Shown one piece after another: positions 118-45,813 of a stretch of DNA of 64,000 bases (positions are counted from its first letter, which is position 1; each line of letters starts with the position of its first letter). The notes beneath the pieces are model-generated. The model saw only the letters and a program-made list of their open reading frames with translations, did not search any database and was not told where the DNA came from. The stretch spans positions 7,245-71,244 of the forward strand of contig JABDDE010000001.1 in assembly GCA_013287775.1 (NCBI GenBank), written 5' to 3'. Position numbers and translations under genes: made by a program. This stretch comes from Chlamydiota bacterium. GTDB lineage: Bacteria; Chlamydiota; Chlamydiia; Chlamydiales; FEN-1388.

Positions 118-529
118 CATCAGGCTAAGGTCATGATTCTCACAGGCTTTGGTACATTTTTTTAACAGGGAGAGCTTCAGGAGAGAGCTTGTCAGAGGCG
201 TGTGGGGTGCTAAAGGCATTGATAATAAAGGTCTGGGCAGAGAGATTAGAGAGAAAGCTAAGGGATTATTATGGGTTTATAAGAAGCACTAAAAATGCAT
301 CGAACATCCCAAACCGTTGCTGGTCTCTGCAGCTCTCTCTCTAAAAAAAGCAACCCAGGTCATAACCACCAACACCCCAAACACCCCTAACGCCTCTGAC
401 AAGCTCTCTCTGCAGCTATTCTCCTGTGGCTCTCCCTGTAAAAAAAAGCAACCAGGGCTTGTATTAGCTATAACGTTGCTATGCTAACATCCTTAGCCTG
501 AGCCTGATGCGTATGCCGCTACCACAGCG
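118..529. mobile_element. Family-3 foldback (MITE-like) element, copy 1
   Basis: Outer ends catcaggctaagg (118-130) and ccttagcctg..ctgatgcgtatgcc (491-517) are inverted. Inner arms at ~157-211 (tttttttaacagggagagc..gagagcttgtcagaggcgtgtggggtgct) and ~373-447 are complementary. The same arms recur at 37428-37883 (opposite orientation), at 32006-32223 and in the arrays at 39745-41010. It has no ORF. Confidence 0.6.
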
Positions 530-2967: not shown

Positions 2968-5250
2968 ATGCACACTTTTGAAAGAAATTTAGGCTACTTT
3001 CAGAAGCTGAATCCGCGTGCAGCGGCGCTTCTTTCGTGTGCAAACACAGAACATCTGCAATTTTGCCACACACAAAAAGGTGAGCTGAATCTCGTCGATA
3101 CTCGAATACATCGCACATACCACGACCCAAAAGGGGCTTTGGATGAGGCTATAAAGACTGCCCAAGCTTTTAAGCTTCCCCACCACTATCTGTGCATATA
3201 TGGCGTGGGGCTGGGGTTTCTCTATCAAGCGCTCTCACAGTGGCTGCATGAAGATGAGAGACGTCTTCTTATTATCTTGGAAGATGATTTAGCCGTTATT
3301 TCGCGATTTTTGGAAACCAAAGCAGCGAGTGAGCTACTACTAGACAAGCAGGTATTTCTATACTATTTTGAACATGGCGAGCATTCTGAGTATATTGCGC
3401 AGAGTATTGCGTGGATCACATTTTCAGAGCCTTTAGTTTTCTATGCATCTCCTGTCTATCGTGAAAGGCAGGCATTTGAGGAGATAGAAAAAGTACTGCT
3501 GAATGAGCAAGCAATCGTATATATGATTCTGGGGGAATATGAGATGCTTGGCTGCCCCTTTTTTTGTAATTTTTGGCAAAACCTGCGCCATTTACCGCAT
3601 TCCTATAATGCTGCAGACCTTTTTAGAGCCTTTAAAGGCATTCCTGCGTATGTTATGGGAGCGGGGCCATCACTCACAAAGCAGCTCCCTCTTCTTCGCA
3701 CTCTCTCAGATCGCGCCCTTCTTATTGCTGGTGGTTCTGCTATGAATATTGCCTGTGAGGCAGGTTTGCAGCCTCATTTTGGTGGCGGGGTTGATCCTAA
3801 CCCAACACAGTATTTAAGACTGCGGCAGAGTTTAGCAGTGGAGATGCCGTTTTTTTATAAGCTCAGAGTGTGCTCACGCGTTCCAGATATGGTTATGGGA
3901 ACAAAATTCTACCTTAAAGGTGATGATGCGTATGGGCCTGGGACATGGTTTGATAAAACGCTCCGTATTCGGGGCAAAGAATTTGAAGGCGGCTACAGCA
4001 TAGCCAACACAAGTATTGCCCTCGCCCATGCTCTTGGATGCAATCCTATTATCTTGGTTGGCTTTGATCTTGCCCTGACTGAAGATCGTCACTATGCTAA
4101 AGGGGTAGAGCATGATGAAGAGGAGCCTACCATAGTTGCGTGGAAAGATTATCAAGGCAAGCCCACAAAGACACTGTGGAAGTGGGTGATGGAAGCTGAA
4201 TGGATTTCAGACTTTTGTGAAAAGCACCCCTCAGTGCAGTGTATCAATGCCACAGAAGGTGGGCTCTGGATTCCCAATGTCACCCATATGCCACTCCAGG
4301 ATGCTGCCAAAAAGTGGTGCAAAAAGGAATATGACATGCAAGGGCTTGTGCATATGGCTATACAAAACGCATCCCCACTCAAATGTACACATAAGGCAAT
4401 TCAGCGTCATATGGGGCGCATTGTAGATAGCCTAAAAAAAGCGCAGGAGCTACTAGAACACGTTCTACAAGATAGCAGCAAAGTAAAACTACACGATCCT
4501 TTTGATAATCCTGATATTGCGGCTCTCTTTTATCAGCTTCAAGGAGAGCCTGCGTTTTTGGCAGTGCTTCAAGAGTTTTACAAAAAAGAGATGAAAAGGA
4601 TACAAGTGAGATGTGAGTGGTTGCAGCATCCTGGAGTTACAGATTTTGAGAGGAACAAAGCCATTTACAACATGCGCTGCGAGTGTTTTGAGTGTTTATT
4701 GCAAGTGACAAAAATGAATATCTCCATTATTGCAGAAATTCTTATGTCATGTACGAGTTTTCCTGCGGAAAACTCGCACATGACAAAAAATAGCAGCTCA
4801 GGCGATGTGGTAGCGAAACGTGGGGTTGTGTGTCAATATTTCGATGATGGGAAGCTTGCGAGCCAAACAGAATATGCGGAGGGGCGCCGTGAGGGAGAAG
4901 CGTTTTTTTATTCACGAGAGGGAATATGCGTGCGTAAGGCGACATATACACATGGGGTGTTAGATGGCAAGCAGTACTATTACTATCCAGACGGCGTTCT
5001 CAGGGCTGTTGTGGACTATAAAAATGGAGAGCTCGATGGCGAGTACCGTCATTACTATCCTAATGGGAAGATAATGCGCCAAATTTCGTGTCAGGCTGGC
5101 AAGCGTCATGGGCTTGATACGCTATGGGAGCAAGATGGACAAAAGCAAGGTAAAGAGCGGTTTATATTCCGTTATGAGCATGGTGTCTTAACAGAGGAGC
5201 TGCTTGCTGACCGCATTGCAGATGAGTATGATGTTCTTAATATTCTATGA
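2968..5250 (+). CDS. DUF115 (Maf/MptE-like) domain protein fused to C-terminal MORN/YwqK-type repeats
   Basis: VMGAGPSL..LIAGGSAMN..GGGVDPNP is the DUF115 core. The C-terminus has repeated YxxGxLxGxxxxYYPNG units (DGKQYYYYPDGVL, DGEYRHYYPNGKI). A PE-1 hairpin is translated in frame at 4745-4785. Confidence 0.7.
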   Translation: MHTFERNLGYFQKLNPRAAALLSCANTEHLQFCHTQKGELNLVDTRIHRTYHDPKGALDEAIKTAQAFKLPHHYLCIYGVGLGFLYQALSQWLHEDERRLLIILEDDLAVISRFLETKAASELLLDKQVFLYYFEHGEHSEYIAQSIAWITFSEPLVFYASPVYRERQAFEEIEKVLLNEQAIVYMILGEYEMLGCPFFCNFWQNLRHLPHSYNAADLFRAFKGIPAYVMGAGPSLTKQLPLLRTLSDRALLIAGGSAMNIACEAGLQPHFGGGVDPNPTQYLRLRQSLAVEMPFFYKLRVCSRVPDMVMGTKFYLKGDDAYGPGTWFDKTLRIRGKEFEGGYSIANTSIALAHALGCNPIILVGFDLALTEDRHYAKGVEHDEEEPTIVAWKDYQGKPTKTLWKWVMEAEWISDFCEKHPSVQCINATEGGLWIPNVTHMPLQDAAKKWCKKEYDMQGLVHMAIQNASPLKCTHKAIQRHMGRIVDSLKKAQELLEHVLQDSSKVKLHDPFDNPDIAALFYQLQGEPAFLAVLQEFYKKEMKRIQVRCEWLQHPGVTDFERNKAIYNMRCECFECLLQVTKMNISIIAEILMSCTSFPAENSHMTKNSSSGDVVAKRGVVCQYFDDGKLASQTEYAEGRREGEAFFYSREGICVRKATYTHGVLDGKQYYYYPDGVLRAVVDYKNGELDGEYRHYYPNGKIMRQISCQAGKRHGLDTLWEQDGQKQGKERFIFRYEHGVLTEELLADRIADEYDVLNIL
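4745..4785. repeat. PE-1 hairpin element inside a CDS (in frame)
   Basis: tgtcatgtacgagttttcc tgc ggaaaactcgcacatgaca; it reads MSCTSFPAENSHMT in the frame of ORF 2968-5250. Confidence 0.9.
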
Positions 5251-7864: not shown

Positions 7865-7874
7865 TATATTTCTA

Positions 7875-8056
7875 CCCAGGGCGTTGCCCTGGGGGTTAGC
7901 ATGTTGCCCTTCAGGCAACAATGTTAGGATCATCACCTGACCCAGGGCGTTGCCCTGGGGGTTAGCATGTTGCCCTTCAGGCAACAATGTTAGGATCATC
8001 ACCTGACCCAGGGCGTTGCCCTGGGCTGTTGCAATTGTTGCCATTCAGGCAGCAAT
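7875..8056. repeat. 66-bp tandem repeat (2.8 copies) of PE-2 hairpin modules
   Basis: The unit cccagggcgttgccctgggggttagcatgttgcccttcaggcaacaatgttaggatcatcacctga occurs at 7875 and 7941, with a variant third unit from 8007. Confidence 0.9.
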
Positions 8057-11529: not shown

Positions 11530-12048
11530 TTATGCATTGTTAAGTGAATCGAGCACATCAGGAGAGATGCCTGTGAAATGAGACAGACAATTTTGCATAG
11601 CTTGCTGTACAACGGCGTGAATAATGGGTCTCACAATTGGGTTGGATGTAACGGTATGAACTGTGCTGACAGCGGTTTGTAAAAGAGTAGGCTGACCCGT
11701 GTAGCCAATGCGTAGTGTCTCTCCCCCTCCTGTCCCCAGTGTAATGGGTGTTCCTTGAGGTGCCGCTGTTATTGGTTGCAAGGCGCTGTCCATGGTCCTG
11801 CTTGCCTGATTGATCCATTTATTGATTTTGCTCAGGCTTGGACGCGGGATAGCGCGCTGCAATATGCTTCTTGCAATACTTTGATCGCAACTTCTTAATC
11901 CTATGAATAAGTCCTGTATTATCTTTTTTATTTTCGCTGCTTTTTCAGGATCAGAAGATGTTGCGATTCGCCGCACTTCCCGAACACACCAATTTTCTAA
12001 CGCATCTCTACTTATATCAACCGTGTAGTTTGTGCTAAAAATACCCAT
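11530..12048 (-). CDS. Hypothetical protein (orphan, effector-like polar N-terminus)
   Basis: 172 aa with an ATG start and an AT-rich upstream region. I recognise no family. Confidence 0.5.
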   Translation of the reverse strand: MGIFSTNYTVDISRDALENWCVREVRRIATSSDPEKAAKIKKIIQDLFIGLRSCDQSIARSILQRAIPRPSLSKINKWINQASRTMDSALQPITAAPQGTPITLGTGGGETLRIGYTGQPTLLQTAVSTVHTVTSNPIVRPIIHAVVQQAMQNCLSHFTGISPDVLDSLNNA

Positions 12049-12082: not shown

Positions 12083-12397
12083 TTACTCTCGGGGTAGGCG
12101 CGCCGCAATACTTCTTACTAACGTAGTAATCCGGTCAGACAAGGCATCTACAATCGCTGCATTAACAGTATCGCCTGATCTTGCTGCACTCCGTTTGGAG
12201 TTAATAATGTCAGCTGCGATCTTTCTTAGTGAATTATGTTCGTCATCTGTTAGTGTTGGATCGCTGCCGAGAATACTTGCATATAGACGTACGACATGTC
12301 TCTCAACAGCCTCGTTGTCCCCTGGTTGGCTTGCACGCTGGGTAAGATAGGGCTTTACATACGCGTTAGTGGTCCCCAAAATATCAGGAATACTCAT
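12083..12397 (-). CDS. Hypothetical protein (orphan, effector-like polar N-terminus)
   Basis: 104 aa with ATG preceded by GAGG. About 140 bp of almost pure A/T lies upstream (12398-12530). Confidence 0.5.
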   Translation of the reverse strand: MSIPDILGTTNAYVKPYLTQRASQPGDNEAVERHVVRLYASILGSDPTLTDDEHNSLRKIAADIINSKRSAARSGDTVNAAIVDALSDRITTLVRSIAARLPRE

Positions 12398-12540: not shown

Positions 12541-13725
12541 CCATTTGAATACGGAATTATTGATTGTTCCCCTGGTCTTCAATGTCGCTTCGCGGCATGA
12601 AGACCGGGGTATTGAATACGGAATTATTGATTGTTCCCCCAGTCTTCAATGCCGCTTCGCGGCATGAAGACTGGGGTAGTTAATCGGAATTTATTGATTG
12701 TTCCCCAGGTTTCAGATGTCGCTTACGCGAACACTGAAACCTGGGTAGTCGGGCACGGGCTCGGGCACGGGCACGGGCACGGAAATTCGGAATAATTAAT
12801 AAACCCGTTGGCCGAGCGGACGCTCACGCGCCGCTCGGCCCGGAATCAGAATAATTGATTGTTCCCTCGTTCTTCATGCCGCTCTGCGGTATGAAGAACG
12901 AGGGCATAGGTTTCGCTGCTACCGCAGCTCTATTGTATTTCATGCACCTGTAACCCCACGTTACCGCCGACCGTAGCGCGAGGCGCTACGGCCGCGCTCC
13001 ACGCGGGGCTAATGAATTCCACCGCTGCCGCGGTGGGGTCCATATCAGCTAGAAGTATGATATGTTATGCGTTTACCCTATCAACTACCCCGCCCTTCAT
13101 GCCGTGTAACGGCATAAAGGGCGGGGAATAATCAACTATTCCGATTCCGGGCCGAGCGGCGCGAAGCGTCCGCGAAGGCAACCGGAATAATCAACTATTC
13201 CGATTCCGGGCCGAGTGGCGCGTTAGCGTCCGCTCGGCCAACGGATTCATCAACTATTCCGAATTTCCGTGCCCGAGCCCGTGCCCGTGCCCGTGCCCGA
13301 ATCACCCCAGTCGAAGCGCTCGCGAAGCGGCTGCGAGACTGGGGGAACAATCAATAAATTCCGATCAACTACCCCAGTCTTCATGCCGCGAAGCGGCATT
13401 GAAGACTAGGGGAACAATCAATAAATTCCGATCAACTACCCCAGTCTTCATACCGCGGAGCGGCATGAAGACTAGGGGGAACAATCAATAATTCCGATTA
13501 CGGGCCGAGCGGCGCGTTAGCGTCCGCGAAGGCCAACGGAACAATCAATTATTCCGAATTTCCGTGCCCGAGCCCGTGCCCGTGCCCGACTACCCAGGTT
13601 TCAGTGTTCGCGTAAGCGACATCTGAAACCTGGGGAACAATCAATAAATTCCGTATTCAATACCCCGGTCTTCATGCCGCGAAGCGACATTGAAGACCAG
13701 GGGAACAATCAATAAATTCCGATAA
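12541..13725. repeat. BIME-like mosaic cluster of ~17 hairpin modules with overall inverted symmetry
   Basis: There are six forward modules (12551-12905) and ~11 reverse modules (13081-13725). Each is a conserved linker cggaat(t/a)attgattgttcccc plus a ~38-bp hairpin (types ccccggtcttcatgccgcgaagcg.., cccaggtttcagtgttcgcgtaagcg.., ggccgagcggcgcg..). (GGGCAC)n tracts are interspersed. No ORF >=60 aa is present. Confidence 0.9.
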
Positions 13726-13800
13726 AAATGTGTCCAAGTCCGTGAGAGTCATGGCCTTAGCCTGATGCATATGCCGCTGCCGCGGTGGGGTCCATATAAG
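13726..13800. repeat. Family-3 terminal module fused to the BIME-like cluster
   Basis: aaaatgtgtccaagtccgtgagagtcatggccttagcctgatgcatatgccgctgccgcggtggggtccatat matches the outer end of the foldback elements at 118-160, 32170-32223 and 37840-37883. Confidence 0.7.
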
Positions 13801-13888
13801 CTTATACACTTGCCCTAAGTTGACGCCATTGGGCTAAGGCTATGGTTGTATTAGCTATAACGTTATTGATATAATAAAGAGGAAAACG

Positions 13889-14083
13889 ATGAAGAAAAAT
13901 CAAGAAAACATCGACTACGCAGTATCATCCGGCAATGTTTTTGTTGATTTGGGACTAGATCAACCAGAAGAACTGTTAGCAAGAGCAAAACTTCTGTGTG
14001 AGGTAAGTAGGCTTATAAAAAACAGTTCTTCAATAAAAAAGAAAGGCAAAGTCTGTAAAGACTTTGCCTTGCTTATATATTGA
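13889..14083 (+). pseudogene. Truncated XRE/HigA-like antitoxin remnant
   Basis: SGNVFVDLGLDQPEELLARAKLLCEVSRLIK matches the N-terminus of HigA-type XRE antitoxins, but the HTH core is missing. The ORF tail runs through the topA terminator hairpin. Confidence 0.4.
14031..14070 (-). terminator. Intrinsic terminator of topA
   Basis: 12-bp stem aaggcaaagtct/agactttgcctt (14043-14070) followed on the minus strand by a U-run (plus-strand aaaaaa at 14035-14040). Confidence 0.7.
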
Positions 14084-14093: not shown

Positions 14094-16658
14094 TTACCAG
14101 CCCATGCTGCTTCTTGTAGTATTGCATTTCGCAGTATTGCATTTTGCAGAGTTGCTTCGTGCAGTATTGCTTCGTGCAGTAGTTTTTGCACTTGTTTTAC
14201 GTGCTGTTGAAGATTTGCGTGCGGTAATCTTTTTTGCCGCAGGCTTTCTTGCAACTGTTTTTGCAACTGTTTTTGCAACGGTTTTCCTTGCAACCGTTTT
14301 TTTAGCCGCAGTTTTTCTTGCTGGGGCTTTTGTTGTTGTTTTCATATCCCTCCTTGGGTTTTTTTGTTTGACATTAACTTTTTTTGTATACGCTTTTTTT
14401 TCATATGCTGTTCGTTCATGTGCTGTATACTTTTGCAGTACTACTTCCACTGAATTTCCAATGACATCGCATTCAGGGAAGGTAGAACATGAATAAAATG
14501 GTTTACCAAAGCGCGAGCGCTTTTTCACAAGATGCCCTGGACAACCTATTGCTGGACATTTTGTTCCTTGCCCGCTCTCCTCTTCCGTACTTTCGCCTTT
14601 TTTAGGAATATTGACAATACCTTTGCATTCAGGATAACTCACGCAGCCTAAAAAAGCACCGAACTTGCCGAAGCGTATTTTCATCTCAGAGCTACATTTG
14701 GGGCACTTTTGCTCCCAATCGAAGTCAGCTGCGTACTCTTCTTTATTAAAGGCTTCTTTTTCAAGAGAGCTTGTGTACGAGCAGTCCGGGTAGTTGCTGC
14801 AGCCTAAAAAGTACTTCCCCTTTGCCCATATTTTTTGGAGTTTGCCGCCACACTGAGGACAAATAATATCTGTGAGGATTCTTGGCACCACAGCATTGGT
14901 TTCAGCGAGCTTGAGAGAAGGCTCAAATTCCTTCCAAAAATCATGCAAAAGCCCCTTCCATTCCTTTTTATTCTCTGCCACAAGCTCAAGGCCATCTTCC
15001 ATAGAAGCTGTAAAGCCAACGTTTACAACGTCCTTGAAGCTTATCTCGAGCATGTCAATGATAATTCTACCAAGGTCGGTGGGCTTGAGCTTGCCTTGCT
15101 CTTTGGTAGTATAGTCACGGCTTTGAATCTTGTTCATAATGGCGGCATACGTAGAAGGCCGTCCAATGCCTGATTTTTCAAGTTCTTTCACGAGAGAGGC
15201 TTCTGAAAAGCGAGGAGGTGGGCGTGTAAACGACTGATCCTGTTTAAGCTCACACAGTGTCAAGGGCTCTTTTTCTTGAAGTGGCGGCAGCATCTTCTCC
15301 CCATCTTTGTCACTTTGCTCGTCTTCATCTTGCTTTTCTTCGTAGATGGCTAAGAAGCCATTAAACTTCATGACGGAGCCTGTAGCGCGCAGCAGAAACC
15401 GTACTCCTGCTTGTATGTCACATGAGACGGTGTCATATATTGCGGCTGCCATTTGACAGGCAACAAAACGCTTCCAGATAAGTGAATAGAGCTGAAATTG
15501 TTCTTTCGAAAGATACGCTTTTATCTTTTCTGGATGATGGTGGAGATTGGTTGGCCGTATCGCTTCGTGAGCATCTTGTGCGCTCTTTTTGAGACTAAAT
15601 GTCCTGACTTCACCTGGTAGGTATTTTTCTCCAAATTCAGCCTGGACATATGCACGTACCTGTGCGACTGCTTCTGGTGCGAGGCGTACGGAGTCAGTTC
15701 TCATATAAGTGATAAGGCCCTCAGCACCTTCTGAGCCAAGATCTATCCCTTCATAGAGGCTTTGTGCAACCTGCATCGTTTTTGCTGGTGAGAAGCGAAA
15801 ATGCCTTGAGGCCTCTTGCTGCAGTGTCGAGGTGATAAAAGGAGCTTCAGGATTTCTTCGCTTTTCTTTGCGCTCAACGCGGCTGACTGTATATGAGGAG
15901 CTTTGCAGCTCTTTTACAATTTTCGTCGCACTCTCTTCATTGTTAACAAGGACGAAATCTGTGCCCTCTTGCTTACCAGGTGGAGGCTCTTTTTCTAAAC
16001 GCTTGCCATCAATAGAATAGAGAGTTGCTGTAAAGGGTTTTTCGCTTTGTTTGGACTGTAAAAGCGCGCTGATGGTCCAGTACTCTTTGGGAATAAATGC
16101 CTCAATTTCTCGCTCTCGGTCAACGACGAGTTTGAGCGCCACGGACTGAACACGCCCTGCAGAGACGCCCTTGCCTCTGCCGCGCCTGAGCCTTCTATTT
16201 AAGAGTGGCGATATACTGTAGCCCACGAGCCTATCAAGAAGTCTGCGTGCTTGCTGGGCGTTCACAAGGGCAAGGTCAATGTCATGAGGATTTTTGAGGG
16301 CCTCTTTCACCGCATCCTTGGTGATAGAATTAAAAGCCACTCGCTTTATTTGCGTATCTTTTGGCAAAATCTGGCTTATATGCCATGCTATGGCTTCTCC
16401 TTCGCGGTCAGGGTCAGGGGAGAGATACACGACATCAGAGGCCTTCGCAGCCTTTTTGAGTGCAGCTATGACATCTTTTTTGTCTGGCAGGGTTACATAT
16501 GTCGGCTCGAAATCGTGTTCGATGTCAACGCCAAATTCACTTGCTGGCAAGTCCCGAATATGTCCATAGGACGATGCAAAATGGAATCCTGGCCCAAGAA
16601 ACTGCTTGAGCGTTTTGATTTTTGCAGGAGACTCAACTATAATTAAAGATTTTCCCAT
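14094..16658 (-). CDS. topA: DNA topoisomerase I with a C-terminal Lys/Ala/Thr/Arg-rich histone-like tail
   Basis: TOPRIM LIIVESPAKIKT, GHIRDLP and active-site YMRTDS, with several C4 zinc ribbons (CPQCGG, CPKCSS, CPAIGCPG). The last ~85 aa read KTAAKKTVARKTVAKTVAKTVARKPAAKK.. Confidence 0.95.
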   Translation of the reverse strand: MGKSLIIVESPAKIKTLKQFLGPGFHFASSYGHIRDLPASEFGVDIEHDFEPTYVTLPDKKDVIAALKKAAKASDVVYLSPDPDREGEAIAWHISQILPKDTQIKRVAFNSITKDAVKEALKNPHDIDLALVNAQQARRLLDRLVGYSISPLLNRRLRRGRGKGVSAGRVQSVALKLVVDREREIEAFIPKEYWTISALLQSKQSEKPFTATLYSIDGKRLEKEPPPGKQEGTDFVLVNNEESATKIVKELQSSSYTVSRVERKEKRRNPEAPFITSTLQQEASRHFRFSPAKTMQVAQSLYEGIDLGSEGAEGLITYMRTDSVRLAPEAVAQVRAYVQAEFGEKYLPGEVRTFSLKKSAQDAHEAIRPTNLHHHPEKIKAYLSKEQFQLYSLIWKRFVACQMAAAIYDTVSCDIQAGVRFLLRATGSVMKFNGFLAIYEEKQDEDEQSDKDGEKMLPPLQEKEPLTLCELKQDQSFTRPPPRFSEASLVKELEKSGIGRPSTYAAIMNKIQSRDYTTKEQGKLKPTDLGRIIIDMLEISFKDVVNVGFTASMEDGLELVAENKKEWKGLLHDFWKEFEPSLKLAETNAVVPRILTDIICPQCGGKLQKIWAKGKYFLGCSNYPDCSYTSSLEKEAFNKEEYAADFDWEQKCPKCSSEMKIRFGKFGAFLGCVSYPECKGIVNIPKKGESTEEESGQGTKCPAIGCPGHLVKKRSRFGKPFYSCSTFPECDVIGNSVEVVLQKYTAHERTAYEKKAYTKKVNVKQKNPRRDMKTTTKAPARKTAAKKTVARKTVAKTVAKTVARKPAAKKITARKSSTARKTSAKTTARSNTARSNSAKCNTAKCNTTRSSMGW

Positions 16659-19114: not shown

Positions 19115-19164
19115 GATGTTTTCGATTCTACGAGAACAAGGGGATTATTTGCAATAGTAATAAT

Positions 19165-19204
19165 GTCATGTGCAAATTTTCCTGACGGAAAATTTGCACA
19201 TGAC
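19165..19204. repeat. PE-1 hairpin element (consensus-like, perfect)
   Basis: gtcatgtgcaaattttcc tgac ggaaaatttgcacatgac followed by gaaaat. Confidence 0.95.
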
Positions 19205-19209
19205 GAAAA

Positions 19210-19397
19210 TGACTCACATGTGAGGTACTTGCAAAATTCCGATTTGGGCCAAAATTTGCGCTTTTGTCGCTGTGGAAAAACCTTTTGCAAATCGCCTACT
19301 CGAGGGAGTATGTCGATTTGCAAAAGGTTTTCCCCATCACCAAAATCATCAAATTTTGTCTCCAACGGAATTTTGCAAGCACCTCATGTGTGAGTCA
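19210..19397. mobile_element. 188-bp foldback MITE (family 4), copy 1
   Basis: 32-bp terminal inverted repeats tgactcacatgtgaggtacttgcaaaattccg / cggaattttgcaagcacctcatgtgtgagtca (3 mismatches). The two halves are ~70% complementary throughout. The second copy is at 33731-33935. Confidence 0.75.
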
Positions 19398-19469
19398 ATA
19401 AAGGACTGTGTGAGTCATAAGTGAGTCAAAATGAGTCATTTCTTAATCGATTTTGACTCAAATGACTCA
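19391..19469. promoter_or_regulatory. Cluster of six TGAGTCA heptamers upstream of the AlbA_2 regulator gene
   Basis: TGAGTCA occurs at 19391, 19411, 19422 and 19432. The complement TGACTCA occurs at 19454 and 19463. The cluster ends 43 nt before the ATG at 19512. Confidence 0.45.
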
Positions 19470-22525: not shown

Positions 22526-24496
22526 ATGAAACATCTCTATAATATAATACTTTTTTCCATATCGTTACTTGTTTGTCAAACAGTTGCGGCTAAGCCTGCA
22601 GAGCTTTCACAGCAAAATGTAACGGATAAAATGCATGAAATTATGAGGGCGCATGTGCTCTACAAGCATTTTTCACCGCTTCTTGCAAAGCGCTCTATTA
22701 GTAACTTTATCGAGGCGCTCGATCCTACAAAGACCTATTTTCTCTTTAGTGAGATAGAAAGGTGGTTAGATCTCGATGAAGATGGTCTTAAACAAGTTGT
22801 GGAGGATTTTGAGCAATCTGAGTTTCCTCTTTTTACAGCTATTTTTGAGCAAATGGATCAAGCGCTTAAAAGACGTGATCTATTCGAAGAGAGGTTGAAA
22901 GGCGTGGCTCTGCCAAAAAACGTCACTCCCAAGGAATTTAAAGACATGAGTTGGTGTGCCAATGAAGCAGAGCTGTATAATCGGTTAAAACGCCTTCGAG
23001 CGCTACAGCTGGAGGCTGCGGGAAACATTGGCGATGATGCCACTTTGAGAGCCAAACAGCGACTTGCAAAAAAACGTAAAATCATGGAAGAAGAGTTTCA
23101 AAATACCGATCCTGTCCTTCGACAAGAAACTATCTGTACACATATTATGAAGGCACTTGCTTCTTCTCTAGACCCTCATACAATGTACTTTACTCCAGAT
23201 GAAGCGTCGCAGTTTTTGTTTTTAATACAGCAGCGCCTTGTGGGCATTGGTGTGCAGCTACGAGATGATGTAGATGGCTTTACCATTGTCAAGATGGTAG
23301 AAGGCGGGCCTGCAGAAGTGTCTAAGGAAATAAAGGTGAAGGACAAGATTATTGGGATCAACGGTGAGCCTGTGATCGGCCTTGATGATGCTGAGGTAAT
23401 CGATATGATCCGAGGCCCCTCTGGAACGCAAGTTGCTCTACGCGTTATTCGTGAAATAGGCCATGATGGGGCAAAAATGCAGCAGGTAAAGGAGATTCAT
23501 CTTACAAGAGGCGATGTTATTGTGAAAGAAGCTCGTCTCGAAACGGCTATCGAGCCATTTGGCGAGGGTGTTATTGCGCACCTGCACCTGCATTCTTTTT
23601 ACCAAGATGAAGATAGCTCTTCAACAACTGATATCATAAAGGCCCTGGGCGAGATACGCAAAAACTACAAAGTAGTTGGGGTTATGCTAGACCTTAGAAA
23701 TAACTCTGGAGGCATTTTAACGGAAGCGGTTAATATTGTTGGTCTTTTTATAAAAAAAGGCGTTGTTGTTTCTATTAAGGATGAACAAGGCAGCGTACAT
23801 CATATGAGAGATTTAGATTCAGAGCAAATATGGGATGGGCCTGTAGCTGTTTTGGTAAATCGTTTGAGCGCGTCGGCGGCTGAAATTGTGGCGCAGGCCC
23901 TGCAAGATTATGGGAGAGCGCTTATTATAGGGGACGATCACACCTATGGGAAGGGCACTTTTCAGACATTTACGCTGACAGGGGCGACTATTAATCCTGA
24001 AGGCGAGTATAAAGTGACGCGTGGCTGTTACTATACGGTGTCTGGCAAGACGCCGCAGCTTGTTGGTACCAGAGCAGATATTATGATTCCAAGTGGTCTT
24101 ATGGGGCTAGAAATTGGCGAAGAGTATGCAAAATATCCCATAGAAAATGACACCATAGCTCCGAGCTTTAATGATACCTTTAGCGACATTTCGTTCTTTC
24201 AGCGAGACAGGGTTCGAAGGCTCTATGGTAACAATGTACAAAAGCCTGACCCGCACATTCGGAGCTTTTTTGCCCTCCTTCGCAAAAATAGCAAAATACG
24301 ACAGGAAAATAACAAGGCATATCAACGCTTTTTGTTGGAGATGAAAAAGAGTGTGGATGAAATGGAGAGCGATACTTCCCTTGAGCATGCTCCCGATTTT
24401 CAGCTTCAAGAGGCGATGAATACGATGAAAGACTATATTATTGATGTTGTGTGCAATTTTCCTGCGGAAAATGTGCACACAACATCAATAAAATGA
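22526..24496 (+). CDS. tsp: Tail-specific (C-terminal processing) protease, S41 family, with PDZ domain
   Basis: Signal peptide MKHLYNIILFSISLLVCQTVAA, a PDZ domain (IVKMVEGGPAE..KDKIIGING), LDLRNNSGG and SASAAEI..GKGT. AAGGGAG RBS. The last 17 aa derive from a PE-1 copy. Confidence 0.9.
   Translation: MKHLYNIILFSISLLVCQTVAAKPAELSQQNVTDKMHEIMRAHVLYKHFSPLLAKRSISNFIEALDPTKTYFLFSEIERWLDLDEDGLKQVVEDFEQSEFPLFTAIFEQMDQALKRRDLFEERLKGVALPKNVTPKEFKDMSWCANEAELYNRLKRLRALQLEAAGNIGDDATLRAKQRLAKKRKIMEEEFQNTDPVLRQETICTHIMKALASSLDPHTMYFTPDEASQFLFLIQQRLVGIGVQLRDDVDGFTIVKMVEGGPAEVSKEIKVKDKIIGINGEPVIGLDDAEVIDMIRGPSGTQVALRVIREIGHDGAKMQQVKEIHLTRGDVIVKEARLETAIEPFGEGVIAHLHLHSFYQDEDSSSTTDIIKALGEIRKNYKVVGVMLDLRNNSGGILTEAVNIVGLFIKKGVVVSIKDEQGSVHHMRDLDSEQIWDGPVAVLVNRLSASAAEIVAQALQDYGRALIIGDDHTYGKGTFQTFTLTGATINPEGEYKVTRGCYYTVSGKTPQLVGTRADIMIPSGLMGLEIGEEYAKYPIENDTIAPSFNDTFSDISFFQRDRVRRLYGNNVQKPDPHIRSFFALLRKNSKIRQENNKAYQRFLLEMKKSVDEMESDTSLEHAPDFQLQEAMNTMKDYIIDVVCNFPAENVHTTSIK
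24443..24486. repeat. PE-1 hairpin element forming the 3' end of tsp
   Basis: gatgttgtgtgcaattttcc tgc ggaaaatgtgcacacaacatc; translated as DVVCNFPAENVHTTS. Confidence 0.85.
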
Positions 24497-29303: not shown

Positions 29304-29354
29304 GACATAAGTATAGCAAAATTTTACTACAAAATCATGTGTTTTTTTAGTAAG

Positions 29355-29390
29355 GTGACGTTAAGTGCGAATTTTCCTGTGAGAAATATT
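29355..29390. repeat. PE-1 hairpin element, degenerate, directly upstream of the ATG at 29391
   Basis: gtgacgttaagtgcgaattttcc tgtg agaaatatt. Confidence 0.5.
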
Positions 29391-31493
29391 ATGAGAATAG
29401 ACTTATCACAACATGATCTTGTGACGCCAGATGGCAAAATTGTCTCCATTACAAAAAAAGATGATGGGATAAGTATGGCCGAGGTGGTGATTGAACATAT
29501 TCATTCTTCCTTTGTGGGGTTTGATATCGATCCAGCGCTTGTTACTTTTAATATTAAGAGTACGCTTGCGCAGCTGGGCATTAATGGGATTGGGATGCAC
29601 TATGAGCTGCATCGAGGGCATAGCAAGGCTATGGTTCTTGTAGAGCTTAGGGCTATCGGCTCGATTGGGCGCGAGCTTTTGCAAGAGCTACCTCTGGGAG
29701 CATACATAGGCAAGCTTTTTGCTGCCGATGAGCGAAGACGCGTTCGCGATCCTATCTATCTTTCTCGTATGTTTGGTCGCTCAGATCGTTGGGGAAGGCC
29801 TCTTTTATCGCTAGGAGGCTTACATGGCAGTGACGAGCTTATTTTGGACAAGATTGATGGTCGCACCGTTGCGTACCTTGCATTAAAAAGAGGAAAAATC
29901 ACCTATGATGCCTCGGTTTTTGGCTTTCTCAGAACGCTTGCAAAGGGGCTTACGACCAAGCACACGTTTCGAGAGCTGCTGCAGCTTCATCAGGAATGGA
30001 ATGCTGGTGCGTTTCGTAATGTCGAAGAGGATGAGATTTTACTTGTAAAAACGCAGCCTCTTCATATTCGCACCGTTTTTGCAAAAGTGGTAGATTCGCT
30101 CTTAGCTGCTGGTTATTGCCATACCACAGCATCTGTTTTACAGCCCGACACGCGTGCCTCAGGTGACATTTACGAATTTTATGGCAAATCAAAGCGAGAA
30201 ATTACAGATCTTCCTCTTGAATTTTACACTCTTGACCCATACAGAGAACATGTTTTCTTTGCAGATCGTGACCAGCTGCAAGCGTGTCTTGAGGATCCTC
30301 AGGCGCTCTTTAAAGCCTTTGAGACAGCTCCGAAGCCCACAGAGGTCCCTGTGGCTACGTTTGTTGTGAAGGGTTCACAGCTTCTTTCCTTGGCGGCAGA
30401 TGATTGGGTGGCTCGTGAATCAACTTTTCATGACTTTCCCGGTATTACTCATGGGGCGCGGCAGGCCTTTTTAGTGGAGCGATATATTGAAAGTCAGGCA
30501 GTATTTCCTTTTTTGAAGGCCATAGAAGAGGGTCGTATTACGAGTCAAGGGGTGTTATTTCTCCGCTATTTCCCCTCTCCCATGATGAAGAGGATGCTTC
30601 TTTCTGCAGCGGTAGCCCGTTCTGTGCAGGGGATTTATTTCCAACATCCCTCTAGATCTTATGGGGGCTTTTTTTCGCAAGAGGATCGAGCACTACTTAC
30701 AGACCTTCATAAGTTTGCCATTGGAGTGTTTTGGGTGGATGCTATTTCGGGAAAAATCCTCCAGTACATGCAGCGTAAAGATCGAGAGTCCGGCATGTTT
30801 GTCCCTATTGGAAGGGGTGAGGAATATATGAAGGCAACGGTATTTGGAGTATATGGCTCAAACTTAATTTCAGGTCACTTTGAAGAAGAGCTGCAAGCGT
30901 TATTGAAAGGAGTGCTGGAGCTTCGAAATACCGTGCATCATCCGCTTTTACAAAAAGATACCCCTCTAGCGCTCATCACGGGAGGTGGTCCCGGTGCCAT
31001 GGAAGTGGGCAACCGCATTGCCAGGAAGCTTAATATCCTTTCATGCGCCAATATTGCAGACTTTCATGAAGAAGGCGGGGTAGTCAATGAGCAAAAACAA
31101 AATCCCTACGTGGATGCAAAGATGACCTACCGCCTGAAGCAATTAGTGGAGCGACAATCGGAATTTAATCTCGACTTTCCCATTTTTGTCATGGGAGGTA
31201 TTGGTACTGACTTCGAATTTACGCTTGAAGAGGTACGTAGGAAAGTCGGGGCTACTGCTGCAACTCCTGTGCTTCTTTTTGGAGAAATCGAATACTGGAA
31301 AAGCAAAATCACGCCCCGTTTTTTGCAAAATAAACAGAGCGGTACCATTGTAGGATCCGAATGGGTAAGCAATTGCTTTTTCTGCATCCAAAAAGCCACG
31401 CAGGGGCTAGAAATTTATTCTCAGTTTTTTCATGGCACGTTGCCAATAGGAAAAAATGGGGCAGAAACGGATGTAGGATTTGTCTGTCCTTAA
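29391..31493 (+). CDS. Large protein with a C-terminal LOG/TIGR00730 (lysine-decarboxylase-like) Rossmann domain
   Basis: LITGGGPGAMEVGN...FVMGGIGTDFEF (PGGxGTxxE-like). I do not recognise the ~500-aa N-terminal region. The start was trimmed past the repeat-derived leader. Confidence 0.6.
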   Translation: MRIDLSQHDLVTPDGKIVSITKKDDGISMAEVVIEHIHSSFVGFDIDPALVTFNIKSTLAQLGINGIGMHYELHRGHSKAMVLVELRAIGSIGRELLQELPLGAYIGKLFAADERRRVRDPIYLSRMFGRSDRWGRPLLSLGGLHGSDELILDKIDGRTVAYLALKRGKITYDASVFGFLRTLAKGLTTKHTFRELLQLHQEWNAGAFRNVEEDEILLVKTQPLHIRTVFAKVVDSLLAAGYCHTTASVLQPDTRASGDIYEFYGKSKREITDLPLEFYTLDPYREHVFFADRDQLQACLEDPQALFKAFETAPKPTEVPVATFVVKGSQLLSLAADDWVARESTFHDFPGITHGARQAFLVERYIESQAVFPFLKAIEEGRITSQGVLFLRYFPSPMMKRMLLSAAVARSVQGIYFQHPSRSYGGFFSQEDRALLTDLHKFAIGVFWVDAISGKILQYMQRKDRESGMFVPIGRGEEYMKATVFGVYGSNLISGHFEEELQALLKGVLELRNTVHHPLLQKDTPLALITGGGPGAMEVGNRIARKLNILSCANIADFHEEGGVVNEQKQNPYVDAKMTYRLKQLVERQSEFNLDFPIFVMGGIGTDFEFTLEEVRRKVGATAATPVLLFGEIEYWKSKITPRFLQNKQSGTIVGSEWVSNCFFCIQKATQGLEIYSQFFHGTLPIGKNGAETDVGFVCP

Positions 31494-31549: not shown

Positions 31550-31560
31550 CAATTGATATC

Positions 31561-31692
31561 GGGCCTTGACTCGGGCCTCGACTCGGGCCTCGACTCGGGC
31601 CTTGACTCGGGCCTTGACTCGGGCCTTGACTCGGGCCTTGACTCGGGCCTTGACTCGGGCCTTGACTCGGGCCTTGACTCGGGCCTCGACTC
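31561..31692. repeat. 12-bp microsatellite, 11 exact-length copies
   Basis: gggcc(t/c)tgactc x11; units 2, 3 and 11 carry c. The track ORFs translated from it (ARVK.., TRAL..) are artefacts. Confidence 0.95.
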
Positions 31693-31716
31693 TCACGGGC
31701 TTGGACACATTTTTAT

Positions 31717-32005
31717 CGGAATTTATTGATTGTTCCCCTGGTCTTCAATGTCGCTTCGCGGCATGAAGACCGGGGTATTGAATACGGAATTTATTGATTG
31801 TTCCCCAGGTTTCAGATGTCGCTTACGCGAACACTGAAACCTGGGTAGTCGGGCACGGGCAAGGGCACGGGCACGGGCACGGAAATTCGGAATAATTGAT
31901 GAATCCGTTGGTCGAGCGGACGCTCACGCGCCGCTCGGCCCGGAATCGGCAGTTATTGATTGTTCCCCCAGTCTCCAAGTCGCTTCGCGAGCGTTTCGAC
32001 TGGGG
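31717..32005. repeat. Second BIME-like module array (4-5 modules, forward orientation)
   Basis: Near-identical to 12551-12845, including the linker cggaatttattgattgttcccc, the tggtcttcaatgtcgcttcgcggcatgaagacc hairpin, the aggtttcagatgtcgcttacgcg hairpin, a (GGGCAC)n tract and the ggtcgagcggacgctcacgcgccgctcggcc hairpin. Confidence 0.9.
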
Positions 32006-32223
32006 TGCTTCTTAAGCCCATAATGATCCCTCAGCTTTCTCTCTAATCTCTCCACTGCCCAGACCTTAATCATCAATGCACCCCAGCACCCCTAACGCCT
32101 CTGACAAGCTCTCTCTGTAAGCTTTCTCCTGTGGCTCTCCCTGTAAAAAAAATGTGCCAAGCTTGTGAGGGTCGTAGCCTTAGCCTGATGCGTATGTCGC
32201 TACCGCGGTGGTGTCCATATTAG
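32006..32223. repeat. Family-3 foldback element, single arm
   Basis: ..cccagacctt..caccccagcacccctaacgcctctgacaagctctctctgtaagc..cctgtggctctccctgtaaaaaaaa..ccttagcctgatgcgtatgtcgctaccgcggtggtgtccatat. Confidence 0.7.
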
Positions 32224-33690: not shown

Positions 33691-33730
33691 AATATCACAT
33701 CTTGCTATTTGTTTCGTTTTATTGCATAAT

Positions 33731-33935
33731 GGTTGAGGTGCTTGCAGAATTCCGTTGGAGACAAAATTTGATGATTTTGGCGATGGGGAAAACCTTTTGC
33801 AAATCACCGCAGTGGCCTGTAAGGCCACAATATGTATAGCCCAGGGCAACGCCCTGGGTGACGATTTGCAAAAGGTTTTTGCCCAGCGACAAAAGCGCGA
33901 ATTTTGGCCCAAATCGGAATTGTGCAAGTACCTCA
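33731..33935. mobile_element. Family-4 foldback MITE, copy 2 (inverted, outer TIR tips missing, carries a nested PE-2 hairpin)
   Basis: gaggtgcttgcagaattccgttggagacaaaatttgatgattttgg..cggaattgtgcaagtacctca. There is a nested insert at 33806-33862 containing cccagggcaacgccctggg. It ends 12 nt before tRNA-Ala. Confidence 0.7.
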
Positions 33936-33947: not shown

Positions 33948-34020
33948 GGGGCGTTAGCTCAATTGGTAGAGCGCAACAATGGCATTGTTGAGGTCAACGG
34001 TTCGACCCCGTTACGCTCCA
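33948..34020 (+). tRNA. tRNA-Ala (anticodon GGC)
   Basis: 73-nt cloverleaf folded by hand: acceptor ggggcgt/acgctcc with the G3:U70 Ala identity pair, anticodon loop atGGCat and T-loop ttcgacc. No encoded CCA. Confidence 0.9.
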
Positions 34021-37335: not shown

Positions 37336-37406
37336 GCGCCTGTAGTTCAATGGTAGAACTGTAGCCTTCCAAGCTACGAGTGTCAGTTCGATTCTGACCA
37401 GGCGCT
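37336..37406 (+). tRNA. tRNA-Gly (anticodon TCC)
   Basis: 71-nt cloverleaf: acceptor gcgcctg/caggcgc, anticodon loop ctTCCaa and T-loop ttcgatt. Confidence 0.9.
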
Positions 37407-37427
37407 ATTATCCTCCTCACGTTTCAC

Positions 37428-37883
37428 GCATACGCATCAGGCTAAGGGATATTAGCATAACAAAGGTTATAGCTAGTACAAGCCATGGTTGCTTTTTTTT
37501 ACAGGGAGAGCCACAGGAGAATAGCTGCAGAGAGAGCTTGTCAGAGGCGTTAGGGGTGCTAGATGCATTTTTCCACTGAAAGTGGAACAGTCCAGGCATA
37601 TAAAAATCGATTGGCAAATTTATTTGCCATGCGATTTTTATATGCCTGGACTACAGCGAGCATACGCTCGCTGAAAATGCATCTTTGATGCTTCGTATAA
37701 GCCAATACAGATCTCTTAGCTCTCTCTAATCTCTCTGCCCAGACCTTTATTACTAATGCCTTTAGCCACCCCACACGCCTCTGACAAGCTCTCTCCTGCA
37801 GCTCTCCCTGTTAAAAAATGTGCCAAAGCCTGTGAGAGCCATGGTTTAGCCTGATGCATATGCCACTACCGTGGCGGGGCACC
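37428..37883. mobile_element. Family-3 foldback (MITE-like) element, copy 2, inserted next to tRNA-Gly
   Basis: The arms are inverted copies of those at 118-529. The centre holds nested hairpins (gtccaggcatataaaaatcg..cgatttttatatgcctggac). It has no ORF. Confidence 0.65.
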
Positions 37884-37911
37884 AGTTCCAATTGGGCATG
37901 TTCTAATTTTC

Positions 37912-37950
37912 GTCATGTGTAATTTTCCGTTAGGAAAATTCACACATGAC
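37912..37950. repeat. PE-1 hairpin element (reverse orientation) abutting the stop of the BNR gene
   Basis: (attttc)gtcatgtgtaattttcc gtta ggaaaattcacacatgac. Confidence 0.9.
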
Positions 37951-39671
37951 TAGTCTTTATGCATCATGCGTGTGAGCAGTTCATGTACATGCTTTTTGTG
38001 AGCCTCTACGATGGTAACAAAGGGGGCTTGCCGCTTGTTCTTATCAAGGATGACGATGGCATGGTGCTCACGGTCAAACAGAAGCCTTTCTGGTTTTTTA
38101 AAGGGCCCATTAAATGATTTTGTGTAGATAGCATACAGCTTACTCTTCTGAGCCACTAAGAAAGGATAGTCGCCATCTACCATGTTGCCTTGCGTCGTTG
38201 TTGGTCCATGTTGAACTATATATGACTTTTTAGAAAGTCGCAGTTCTTTGACAAAGTTAAGGCCAGCTTTGGTGCTGCCTCCATTTTGTTTTTCAACCTC
38301 ATTATATACTGCAAGCCACGCATCGATCTTGGTTTTATTGATATGTGCCTTGTTATCGTTTCTGAGATCAAAGTACAAAACTCCTAGCTGTCCATCTTCA
38401 GTGATAGCAACGAATGGAGAAAATGCTTGAGGGTTTTTGGCATGTTTCGGTGTTCGGCTGATGCGTACGGGCTTAGACCATGTTTGGCCGCCATCTCGAG
38501 AGGAAGAGATCGCAATTTGGGGTAGCTTGTCATCGCGAAAGTGGCCTGTTTGCCATACGGCATACAGAAATCCATTTGCTGGATTTACGCAGAATGCAGG
38601 GATGATGTCTCCAGCTCTAATTAAGGCTCCAATGCCACCTGAAATATGGCCATGTTTGTACGTGTAGCCGCCCGTGAAGACTAAATTGCCATCGAGTGGA
38701 TGTACTACATGAGCATGTTTTTCCCACGTTTTTCCCTGATTTTTAGAGCGCACAAATGCTATATCGAATTTTGTATGCTGATAGGGGAATATATCGTTCG
38801 TATATTGCGCATCTGTCACACCAGGTTTGGCGAAGATGCGTACCATGAAGTTGAGCAGGTCCCCATTCATATGTGGTTTTTTGCCTTTCGGAAGGACAAC
38901 CACAATATTATTGACTGTTGAGTTGTCATTCAAAATGCCATTGCTGTGATTGTGTGCGATAAGGTCTGGAAATGGATCGTAGAGTACTTTATGGGGTGTC
39001 CACGTCTTACCACCATTTTTTGTACGGCTGATTTCTGTATGTGAGTGAAAAGAAATGGCTTGATCAAAGCGATCCCACACAGCATAGGCAAGGTCAGAAT
39101 AGTTGGGGTCGGCAGTAATTGAGGTCTTGTCGTCGAGTGCAAATAAACCTGTGGGCTCATTTAATGACTCCTGACTCGATGCAAGAAAATAGGGCTTACC
39201 CCAGTGCGCGCCACCATCTTTTGACACTGTAACAACGACGCCTTGTTGATTTTGGGTATTGCGCTCTGTTTTTGCATTGATGAAAATAGCAATGAGATAG
39301 ACACGGCTGCCGTCTTTTGAAAAGCTCAGCCATGTATCTGTGACCCTTTGCGAGATGCCGCCATTACATATCTGAAACGGTACTGTACTGTTTTTCCATG
39401 TTTTGCCGCCATCTTTAGAATAGGCAATGCCCGCCTCTAATGCACCAGCATTTGAAATTCTATCTTGTTGCCAGCAGGTAACGATATTATTTGTGTTTTT
39501 CGGATTGACCGCTATTGTCGGCTCTACAGCTGCACCAACATGAATGGTAGTTGTTGCATTATATACTTCTTGTTGTTTTAAGCAGTGGCGGCTATAGTGT
39601 GTTGCAAAGCCCTGAGACATCATTGTCAGGGCAGCTAATGCCCATGCTGCTAAAATGGAAAATTTTCTCAT
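37950..39671 (-). CDS. Secreted BNR/Asp-box repeat protein (sialidase/exo-alpha-sialidase-like beta-propeller)
   Basis: Signal peptide plus five SxDxGxTW boxes (SKDGGKTW, SKDGGAHW, TKNGGKTW, SKNQGKTW, SRDGGQTW). Confidence 0.75.
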   Translation of the reverse strand: MRKFSILAAWALAALTMMSQGFATHYSRHCLKQQEVYNATTTIHVGAAVEPTIAVNPKNTNNIVTCWQQDRISNAGALEAGIAYSKDGGKTWKNSTVPFQICNGGISQRVTDTWLSFSKDGSRVYLIAIFINAKTERNTQNQQGVVVTVSKDGGAHWGKPYFLASSQESLNEPTGLFALDDKTSITADPNYSDLAYAVWDRFDQAISFHSHTEISRTKNGGKTWTPHKVLYDPFPDLIAHNHSNGILNDNSTVNNIVVVLPKGKKPHMNGDLLNFMVRIFAKPGVTDAQYTNDIFPYQHTKFDIAFVRSKNQGKTWEKHAHVVHPLDGNLVFTGGYTYKHGHISGGIGALIRAGDIIPAFCVNPANGFLYAVWQTGHFRDDKLPQIAISSSRDGGQTWSKPVRISRTPKHAKNPQAFSPFVAITEDGQLGVLYFDLRNDNKAHINKTKIDAWLAVYNEVEKQNGGSTKAGLNFVKELRLSKKSYIVQHGPTTTQGNMVDGDYPFLVAQKSKLYAIYTKSFNGPFKKPERLLFDREHHAIVILDKNKRQAPFVTIVEAHKKHVHELLTRMMHKD

Positions 39672-39744: not shown

Positions 39745-40115
39745 GGGAGAGAGCTTGACAGAGGCGTGTGTGGTGCTGGGATGTGTTGGTGAGGAAGGTC
39801 TGGGGGAATTTTTTTCACAGGGAGAGCTACAGGAGAGAGCTTACAGAGAGAGCTTGACAGAGGCGTGTGGGGTGCTTTGAAGGGATGGTGTGAAACGCCT
39901 GGGGAGTTTTTTTCACAGGGAGAGCCACAGGAGAGAGCTTACAGAGAGAGCTTGACAGAGGCGTGTGGGGTGCTTTGAAGGGATGGTGTGAAACGCCTGG
40001 GGAGTTTTTTTCACAGGGAGAGCCACAGGAGAGAGCTTACAGAGAGAGCTTGACAGAGGCGTGTGGGGTGCTTTGAAGGGATGGTGTGAAACGCCTGGGG
40101 AGTTTTTTTCACAGG
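39745..40115. repeat. 98-bp tandem array (~3.8 units) of the family-3 arm, forward
   Basis: cacagggagag recurs at 39816, 39914, 40012 and 40110. The unit is ..cacagggagagccacaggagagagcttacagagagagcttgacagaggcgtgtggggtgctttgaagggatggtgtgaaacgcctggggagttttttt. Confidence 0.95.
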
Positions 40116-40136
40116 AACACAGTGAATTAAAAGGTT

Positions 40137-40523: not shown

Positions 40524-40569
40524 AAAAAAGACTCTTCTCCTTTGTTTTTCTCTAAAATTGTTACACAAA

Positions 40570-41010: not shown

Positions 41011-41044
41011 CCTCCAGACCTATGACTGCCCACTGCCCAAGCCG

Positions 41045-45785: not shown

Positions 45786-45813
45786 TTCTCCTGGCGGCAG
45801 AATTACACATGAC
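45775..45813. repeat. PE-1 hairpin element containing the murA stop codon
   Basis: gtcatgtgtaattctcc tggc ggcagaattacacatgac followed by gaaaaaa. Confidence 0.85.

Follow-up and report, generated by a model that had tools for sequence, protein, structure and literature searches.

The stretch of DNA analyzed here, hereafter the window, is 64 kb of chromosomal DNA from an uncultured chlamydia. It encodes an ATP/ADP translocase and, on the minus strand, a TopA (14094-16658) that shares 66-75% identity with proteins from Chlamydiia, Parachlamydia, and Protochlamydia. Between a gene for a 104-aa protein (12083-12397, minus strand) and a 64-aa open reading frame (ORF; 13889-14083) lies a repeat region of 1.2 kb, termed array 1 (12545-13725), which is the main subject of this analysis. 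The 64-aa ORF resembles a truncated helix-turn-helix (HTH) antitoxin gene and overlaps a bidirectional terminator-like hairpin (14043-14070) beside topA. An initial annotation had described the repeat region as an ORF-free mosaic of about 17 modules, six facing forward and about eleven backward, each built of a linker and a hairpin and together forming a giant inverted repeat. This outline was borne out when we cut the arrays at the linker core. The ~17 modules correspond to 14 hairpin modules plus three hexamer tracts, of which five hairpins and one tract faced forward (12549-12909) and nine hairpins and two tracts faced backward (13081-13723).

The modules of array 1 were arranged in two opposed blocks and spaced at 59-68 bp. 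The left arm (12545-12909, plus strand) contained modules A (12549-12614), A (12616-12681), B (12683-12748), C (12785-12850), and a variant of A (12844-12909), in which the linker CGGAAT(T)ATTGATTGTTCC was followed by a hairpin of 38-42 nt. The right arm (13081-13723, minus strand) read from 13723 in the order A, B, hexamer tract, C, A, A, D, hexamer tract, C, C, A'. The interspersed (GGGCAC)n tracts of the initial annotation were located at 12750-12782, 13267-13299, and 13561-13588. The first is a (CGGGCA)5.5 tract with five G3 runs and 3-nt loops on the plus strand, which is here the linker-forward strand, and the other two are (CGGGCA)n tracts that are G-rich on the minus strand; all three would fit a G-quadruplex motif. 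The arms were separated by a central spacer of ~170 bp (12910-13075, no assigned strand), which contained many small hairpins (RNA fold z = -3.6) as well as a copy, 29 nt long (13022-13050), of the outer hairpin found in the T terminus, a separate repeat described below.

Next, the two halves of the module were characterized. The linker pattern GGAAYWATYRATWRWTYCC, with two mismatches or fewer, gave 32 strand-hits in the window compared to 0.17 expected from shuffled sequences, and all 32 were confined to 12552-13720 or 31718-31967. The linker, CGGAAT(T)(T/A)ATTGATTGTTCC or CGGAATAGTTGATTATTCC, is an AT-rich unit of 20-25 nt, in which GGAAT and RTTCC arms are separated by 8-9 nt and TTGAT is invariant. 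Its mean G+C content was 31%, whereas that of the hairpin was 64%. The common form of the linker showed no fold (DNA, -0.7 kcal/mol; z = -0.7 against shuffles) and yet was conserved, indicating that its sequence rather than its structure is maintained and suggesting that it is recognized by a protein or serves in recombination.

The GC-rich hairpin, 38-42 nt in length, occurred in four related types: A (CCCCAGTCTTCA..TGAAGACTGGGG), B (CCCAGGTTTCAG..CTGAAACCTGGG), C (GGCCGAGCGG..CCGCTCGGCC), and D (CCCCAGTC..GACTGGGG), the last with a weaker interior. Alignment showed that the apex CGCT-N-CGCG is common to all four. A joint alignment of all modules by MAFFT and RNAalifold fell out of structural register and retained only 7 pairs, and per-hairpin folds and pair lists were used instead. 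Stems of 11-19 bp were obtained (14-19 bp in all except one), with RNA energies of -19 to -37 kcal/mol. As DNA, types A, B, and C folded well beyond shuffled sequences (z = -5.9 to -9.6), whereas type D reached only z = -2.4. GCGAAGC loops, noted in the initial annotation as a motif known to form an exceptionally stable DNA mini-hairpin, were indeed present at four sites (CGCGAAGCG at 13160, 13321, 13387, and 13678); however, the motif is the shared apex read on the reverse strand, where the loops are GAA, GTAA, GTGA, GTTA, and GGA, so that it forms the tip of 14-19-bp stems rather than an independent mini-hairpin. About 8 of 24 modules carried GTAG on the 3′ side of the stem as read on the linker-forward strand (GGGGTAGTT or GGGTAGTC); the remaining modules had GTAT or GTGA in its place, and type C had none.

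We then analyzed how the stems vary among copies. The outer stems of the A copies read CG-AT, TG-GC, TA-GC, TA-CG, or CG-GC-CG, pairing being kept through double changes. Furthermore, when the unique hairpins were considered with the decayed relic at 61271-61390 excluded, G·T wobbles occurred 11 times on the linker-forward strand and twice on the other (binomial p = 0.022). This bias held where the linker-forward strand was the plus strand of the chromosome (forward arm and array 2) and where it was the minus strand (reverse arm). Because the bias tracks the element in both chromosomal orientations, it is not as expected of a replication-strand mutation bias. One strand of the element appears to fold, either as single-stranded DNA (ssDNA) or as RNA.

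The region was found to be free of coding capacity in practice, as had been proposed. The longest ORF within the 1.2 kb was 54 aa, and a six-frame translation of the reverse arm with its flanks (13070-13745, concatenated) gave no protein match at E<=0.001; a coding function was thus rejected. No Rfam family was detected at gathering and E-value thresholds, the only matches being sub-threshold ones to generic miRNA precursors. The hairpins were not followed by T-tails, and a reading of the modules as terminators was likewise rejected, as was a reading of the locus as a replication origin or terminus, since GC skew showed no switch.

The window contained 18 hairpin modules and one relic, all of them extragenic and confined to two arrays and the relic; no solo hairpins or solo linkers were observed in the 64 kb. 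Both of the additional sites listed in the initial annotation proved real. Array 2 (31715-32010, plus strand) has the order A, B, hexamer tract (31850-31882), C, D, and the decayed relic (61271-61390, plus strand) consists of a linker, a hairpin 74% identical to type B, a hexamer remnant, and the next linker. On its own strand, the reverse arm of array 1 starts with A, B, hexamer tract, C, and 195 nt of it, including ~30 nt of non-modular flank, were 97% identical to array 2, its first four units reaching 97-100%. The forward arm had a 163-nt block in common with array 2 (96%). Positional homologues between arrays were 97-100% identical, whereas adjacent modules of the same type within an array were only 74-94% identical, indicating that the arrays were built mainly by copying and recombining multi-unit blocks and not by simple local tandem duplication.

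Outside the window, a metagenome scan for two linker cores 45-60 nt apart returned more than 102 loci, and among the matches listed only one was homologous, a 2289-bp contig (L082). Its modules, in the order A, D, hexamer tract, C, C, C, D, immediately follow a nucleotidyltransferase/HEPN-like gene pair, and the contig was 90% identical over 354 nt to the inner reverse arm, with the order A-D-hexamer-C-C retained in a different gene context. A scan of a genome collection, in which the source species is not represented, gave only 8 single chance matches to the linker GGAACAATCAATWAWTTCCG in unrelated metagenome-assembled genomes (MAGs). Viral contigs gave no match, and among plasmids only the hexamer tract was matched, in Streptomyces. 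The two closest available relatives (L113 and L114; TopA 72-75% identical) have dprA-topA followed by a DUF4097 gene and no modules. Since they keep dprA-topA and lack the modules, the family has expanded recently in the present lineage. The gene order of the window departs from dprA-topA-DUF4097 exactly at array 1, which places the array at a synteny breakpoint. (GTGCCC)n tracts were also observed in L113 (TopA 75% identical) at 1930-2036 and 11813-11832, one pair being inverted around a 40-bp AT-rich spacer; the hexamer microsatellite may be older than the module family. TopA itself terminates in a lysine-rich tail (residues 743-846) similar to histone-like HC2; among the homologues in the hit list, most of the Parachlamydiaceae type instead have a SWIB domain (PF02201), which, like the tail, is missing from the closest hits.

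The description as a giant inverted repeat was substantiated by arms that were 85-98% complementary: 98% between 12685-12776 and 13562-13653, 85% between 12542-12648 and 13624-13730, and 91% between 12749-12865 and 13184-13300. As ssDNA, the 1.2 kb folded arm on arm (-496 kcal/mol). The initial annotation had suggested that the region could extrude as a cruciform, block replication or transcription, or bind a nucleoid protein; the ~170-bp spacer and the divergence of the arms argue against easy cruciform extrusion. We regard the inverted repeat as two composite blocks placed tail to tail. Alternatively, the modules could be genuine and the layout of forward arm, center, and reverse arm an assembly mis-join of two contigs that each ended in an array. 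At both edges (~12581 and ~13749), the Logan k-mer contigs of SRR8434706 come to an end, leaving the 89-kb contig as the sole support for the internal order; the position of array 1 coincides exactly with the point at which the gene order leaves the dprA-topA-DUF4097 synteny of L113 and L114; and arrays of 67-bp units at 75-100% identity are difficult for short reads. An exact look-up of a central ORF (13012-13131), aimed at an independent contig over the junction, gave no record. Nevertheless, the arms have diverged (85-98%), differ in length and module order, and are linked by a unique center of ~170 bp; the five-unit order inside the reverse arm is independently reproduced by L082; and the gene coordinates of an ENA contig from another sample predict that it extends ~363 nt beyond the 104-aa gene, into the forward arm. 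Therefore, we consider a mis-join unlikely.

Among known repeats, the NIME of Neisseria is the closest architectural analogue. In NIME, the 20-bp dRS3 (ATTCCC-N8-GGGAAT) alternates with RS units in a wave of G+C content (PMC1797815), and the longer form, NTS, is an ssDNA substrate that the GIY-YIG nuclease SsnA cleaves (PMC11893778). The genome paper of strain FAM18 in 2007 stated that this layout had not been observed outside Neisseria (PMC1797815). Similarly, the chlamydial arrays are intergenic, alternate a conserved ~20-bp unit having 5-6-bp inverted arms ~8 nt apart with variable units from several families, and show a regular G+C wave; in both, copy number and order vary between loci, and the arrays are thought to be recombination substrates (PMC1797815; PMC11893778). 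However, the chlamydial linker is GGAAT-N8/9-RTTCC with a conserved TTGAT center, whereas dRS3 has a variable center, and it matches neither the dRS3 consensus nor NTS (CGTCATTCCCGCG..GCGGGAATC). In addition, the variable units of the chlamydial arrays are strong hairpins and the conserved unit is AT-rich, which is the reverse of NIME. The host belongs to another phylum, and no ssnA-like gene was found in the 64-kb window: no single-domain GIY-YIG gene flanked by repeats was detected there, and the sole repeat-flanked nuclease gene was of the PD-(D/E)XK_3 type and associated with another repeat family.

The initial annotation had likened the region to the bacterial interspersed mosaic elements (BIMEs) of E. 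coli, and this is a fair analogy, even though the region is not a BIME. The REP/BIME and RAYT systems, including the REPINs of Pseudomonas, likewise consist of extragenic GC-rich imperfect palindromes of 35-42 nt in mosaics with short linkers, and they likewise break short-read assemblies. The REP tag is GTAG or CGTC; in the E. coli REP consensus, GTAG lies 5′ of the stem. Many of the chlamydial copies also end in GTAG (GGGGTAGT), as does REP at one end of the stem-loop (PMC3733652), but here GTAG lies 3′ of the stem on the linker-forward strand, so that its polarity is opposite. Moreover, REPs alternate in orientation within BIMEs, whereas the chlamydial modules are direct within each arm, and neither solo copies nor a gene for RAYT, the IS200/IS605-type Y1 transposase that REPs usually flank, was present in the 64-kb window. 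The BOX elements of Streptococcus pneumoniae have the structure boxA-(boxB)n-boxC. The arrays share with them a modular composite build, a variable number of internal modules, strong structure, and a location downstream of genes; in contrast, the chlamydial arrays are dissimilar in sequence, lack fixed A and C modules at their ends, and have the linker between all modules. Palindromes derived from IS200/IS605 elements also have strand-polar hairpins, and ISDra2 inserts 3′ of TTGAT, of which the TTGAT in every linker and in most hairpin tails (TAGTTGAT) is reminiscent; however, the window contained no TnpA, no definable pair of left and right ends, and no insertion-site evidence. We found no paper on such repeats in chlamydiae and none citing the SRR8434706 read set. 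The array represents a non-coding, new family of a known kind of selfish or semi-domesticated intergenic repeat, exemplified by those of E. coli and Neisseria, and lies outside any named family.

On balance, we favor the view that the region is a lineage-specific REP/BIME- or NIME-like mosaic repeat. In this view, it propagates block by block and is rearranged at the linkers, and its active form is a single strand that a trans-acting protein encoded outside the window probably recognizes. The AT-rich linker would serve as a recognition-type unit followed by the GC-rich hairpin, and multi-unit blocks together with a (GGGCAC)n tract would be copied from one intergenic site to another, after which recombination or slippage at the identical linkers would rearrange the units. 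The hairpins are kept foldable on one strand, suggesting that the element acts, or is copied, as a single strand, whether ssDNA or a transcript. This strand would most likely be the substrate of a hairpin- and linker-specific protein whose gene lies elsewhere in the genome. Spread by mobility or recombination, a cognate protein, and effects on neighboring genes are accordingly what we infer rather than what we observed. Several points weigh against this view. The known loci number three in the window and one outside it, so that a dispersed family rests on few copies, and neither empty sites nor target duplications could be obtained as evidence for transposition. The order of modules inside array 1 is backed by one assembly only (the 89-kb contig). 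The strand signal is mixed, as GAA and GNRA-type stable loops favor the reverse strand, and the wobble events are few and not fully independent. The initial annotation had suggested a search for a RAYT-like gene; screening the 58 ORFs of the 64-kb window detected no transposase, HUH/RAYT, GIY-YIG, or integrase gene, which leaves the proposed cognate protein hypothetical.

An RNA-level role in cis would be compatible both with this view and with a selfish origin of the element. Roles in mRNA protection or insulation have been shown for E. coli REPs and pneumococcal BOX elements, and stem-loop arrays transcribed in 3′ untranslated or intergenic regions could here shield upstream mRNA from 3′-exonucleases or insulate transcription units. 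The wobble bias on one strand is G·U-compatible, and the RNA hairpins are very stable, as indicated by the energies above. Furthermore, the linker-forward strand coincides with the sense strand of the gene preceding array 2 (29337-31493), of that preceding the relic (59973-61025), and of that preceding the array in L082, which begins 8 nt past a stop codon; this holds more loosely for the reverse arm, which is downstream of topA. However, no gene in sense orientation precedes the forward arm of array 1, and the resulting orientation score of 4/5 does not reach significance. The hairpins are not followed by U-tails, and none of them was scored as a terminator, the two terminator-like sites in the region falling between hairpins, and the terminator-like hairpin at 14043-14070 intervenes between topA and the reverse arm. 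The absence of an Rfam match also speaks against this putative role. Accordingly, we regard an RNA-level role as doubtful, although it retains a real chance of being correct.

A third possibility, that the modules serve as arrayed binding sites for a protein of the nucleoid or of DNA topology, such as an integration host factor (IHF)/HU-like protein, gyrase, or topoisomerase, seemed considerably less plausible, even though E. coli BIMEs include IHF- and gyrase-binding forms. The linker has the geometry of a dimer site, with 5-6-bp inverted arms 8-9 nt apart, its reverse strand contains AATCAA, the core of the IHF consensus WATCAANNNNTTR, and array 1 lies beside topA. Nevertheless, only the ATCAA core matched and the TTR part failed in every variant, so that the full IHF consensus is absent; the proximity to topA is a single case, the neighbors of array 2 and L082 being unrelated; and the strand-polar wobble bias is left unexplained. 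We therefore consider such an array very unlikely. The regular periodicity of 59-68 bp and the conserved short repeat could also suggest a CRISPR array having a 22-nt repeat and spacers of 38-45 nt. This was refuted, beyond practically any doubt, because the "spacers" are palindromes of four recurring types that are 74-100% identical to each other and occur in the same order at three loci; likewise, no cas gene is present in the 64 kb.

The arrays are attached to the termini of a second repeat family, a connection that the initial annotation did not make. The T terminus (13726-13802, plus strand), which reads AAAAATGTGTCCAAG..GTGAGAG..GCCTTAGCCTGATGC..CCGCTGCCGCGGTGG, abuts the start of the reverse arm, and further copies were found at 32150-32223, 37816-37879, 118-159 (minus strand), and 31682-31712 (minus strand). 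Both the reverse arm and array 2 start immediately after the inner end of this ~75-nt terminus. The last 29 nt of T at 13726-13802 repeat the fragment 13022-13050 of the central spacer, and the resulting direct repeat (13022-13050 and 13774-13802) encloses the entire reverse arm together with T. Array 2 lies in a T-bounded element with one unit of a ~98-bp family; this second composite element (31682-32223, plus strand) consists of a partial minus-strand T (31682-31712), array 2, the ~98-bp unit (32054-32153), and a plus-strand T (32150-32223). Two elements resembling miniature inverted-repeat transposable elements (MITEs), at 113-525 and 37420-37880, are bounded by inverted T (CATCAGGCTAAGG ... 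CCTTAGCCTGATG) and carry ~98-bp units; the latter begins 14 nt past a tRNA gene (37336-37406). Directly upstream of array 2, a perfect tandem array of a 12-mer, (TCGGGCCTTGAC)x11, occupies 31559-31692 (plus strand). Compared by eye, it has the look of a T-terminus segment that was expanded (GTCATGGCCTTA versus GTCAAGGCCCGA), and it may be derived from T.

The ~98-bp family also forms inverted tandem arrays (39747-41013) on both sides of a single-domain PD-(D/E)XK_3 "GxxExxY" nuclease gene (PF13366; 40137-40613, minus strand; annotated product 128 aa). GxxExxY homologues in unrelated genomes (L115, L116, L119, L120, L122, and L123) shared this layout, with repeats of the CCACAGAG/CTCTGTGG type beside the gene. 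This motif occurred at 8.9 per kb within 500 nt of seven GxxExxY genes compared to 0.39 per kb elsewhere in the same loci. Some of the GxxExxY genes were wedged between housekeeping genes, for example groEL and dnaJ in L123. By analogy, the combination of a GxxExxY gene and a flanking repeat resembles the pairings of RAYT with REP and of Ssn with NTS (PMC3733652; PMC11893778); we found no open-access paper linking GxxExxY to repeats. As a speculative and rather improbable extension, the linker-hairpin arrays and the ~98-bp/T repeats could be two cargoes of one partnership, driven by the GxxExxY protein of the window (40137-40523), which would recognize ssDNA hairpins.

Chlamydiae are usually regarded as compact and repeat-poor. 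Sequence repeated within the 64-kb window amounted to ~4.5 kb (7%), which was almost entirely intergenic and belonged to at least six families; this is a high load for a chlamydial genome. Palindromes of ~45 nt (GTCATGTGC..TTTTCC-loop-GGAAAA..GCACATGAC) occurred singly in intergenic positions at 4736-4791, 19157-19210, 24435-24484, 37902-37951, 45767-45900, 61205-61260, and 61382-61431, several of them just downstream of genes; these are REP- or terminator-like and distinct from the modules. Another family (7874-8056) has a 66-bp unit repeated 2.7 times, with two GC-rich hairpins, and an inverted partial copy 38 kb away (45980-46063). Inverted repeats at 19221-19402 and 33718-33935, comprising 88 nt (90%) and 74 nt (95%), bracket a segment of 14.5 kb that contains a Schlafen/AlbA_2 gene, an HTH_17 gene, and array 2, and one end of which adjoins a tRNA gene (33948-34020). 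This segment may be invertible or acquired.

Taken together, the arrays reveal NIME/BIME-like dynamics in Chlamydiota. They break assemblies, mark synteny breakpoints, and are candidate substrates for recombination or for hairpin-specific nucleases, and they thus matter both for the quality of MAGs and for the genome plasticity of intracellular bacteria. The strand-polar conservation provides a concrete hypothesis, that of a strand-specific hairpin, which is testable in vitro. The repeat-flanked GxxExxY nuclease genes found across phyla may be a more valuable lead than the arrays themselves. If the proposed partnership were true, it would join RAYT/REP and Ssn/NTS as the third system of their type, would give the very large family PF13366 its first function, and would explain why ~7% of this stretch of an intracellular chlamydia consists of intergenic repeats.

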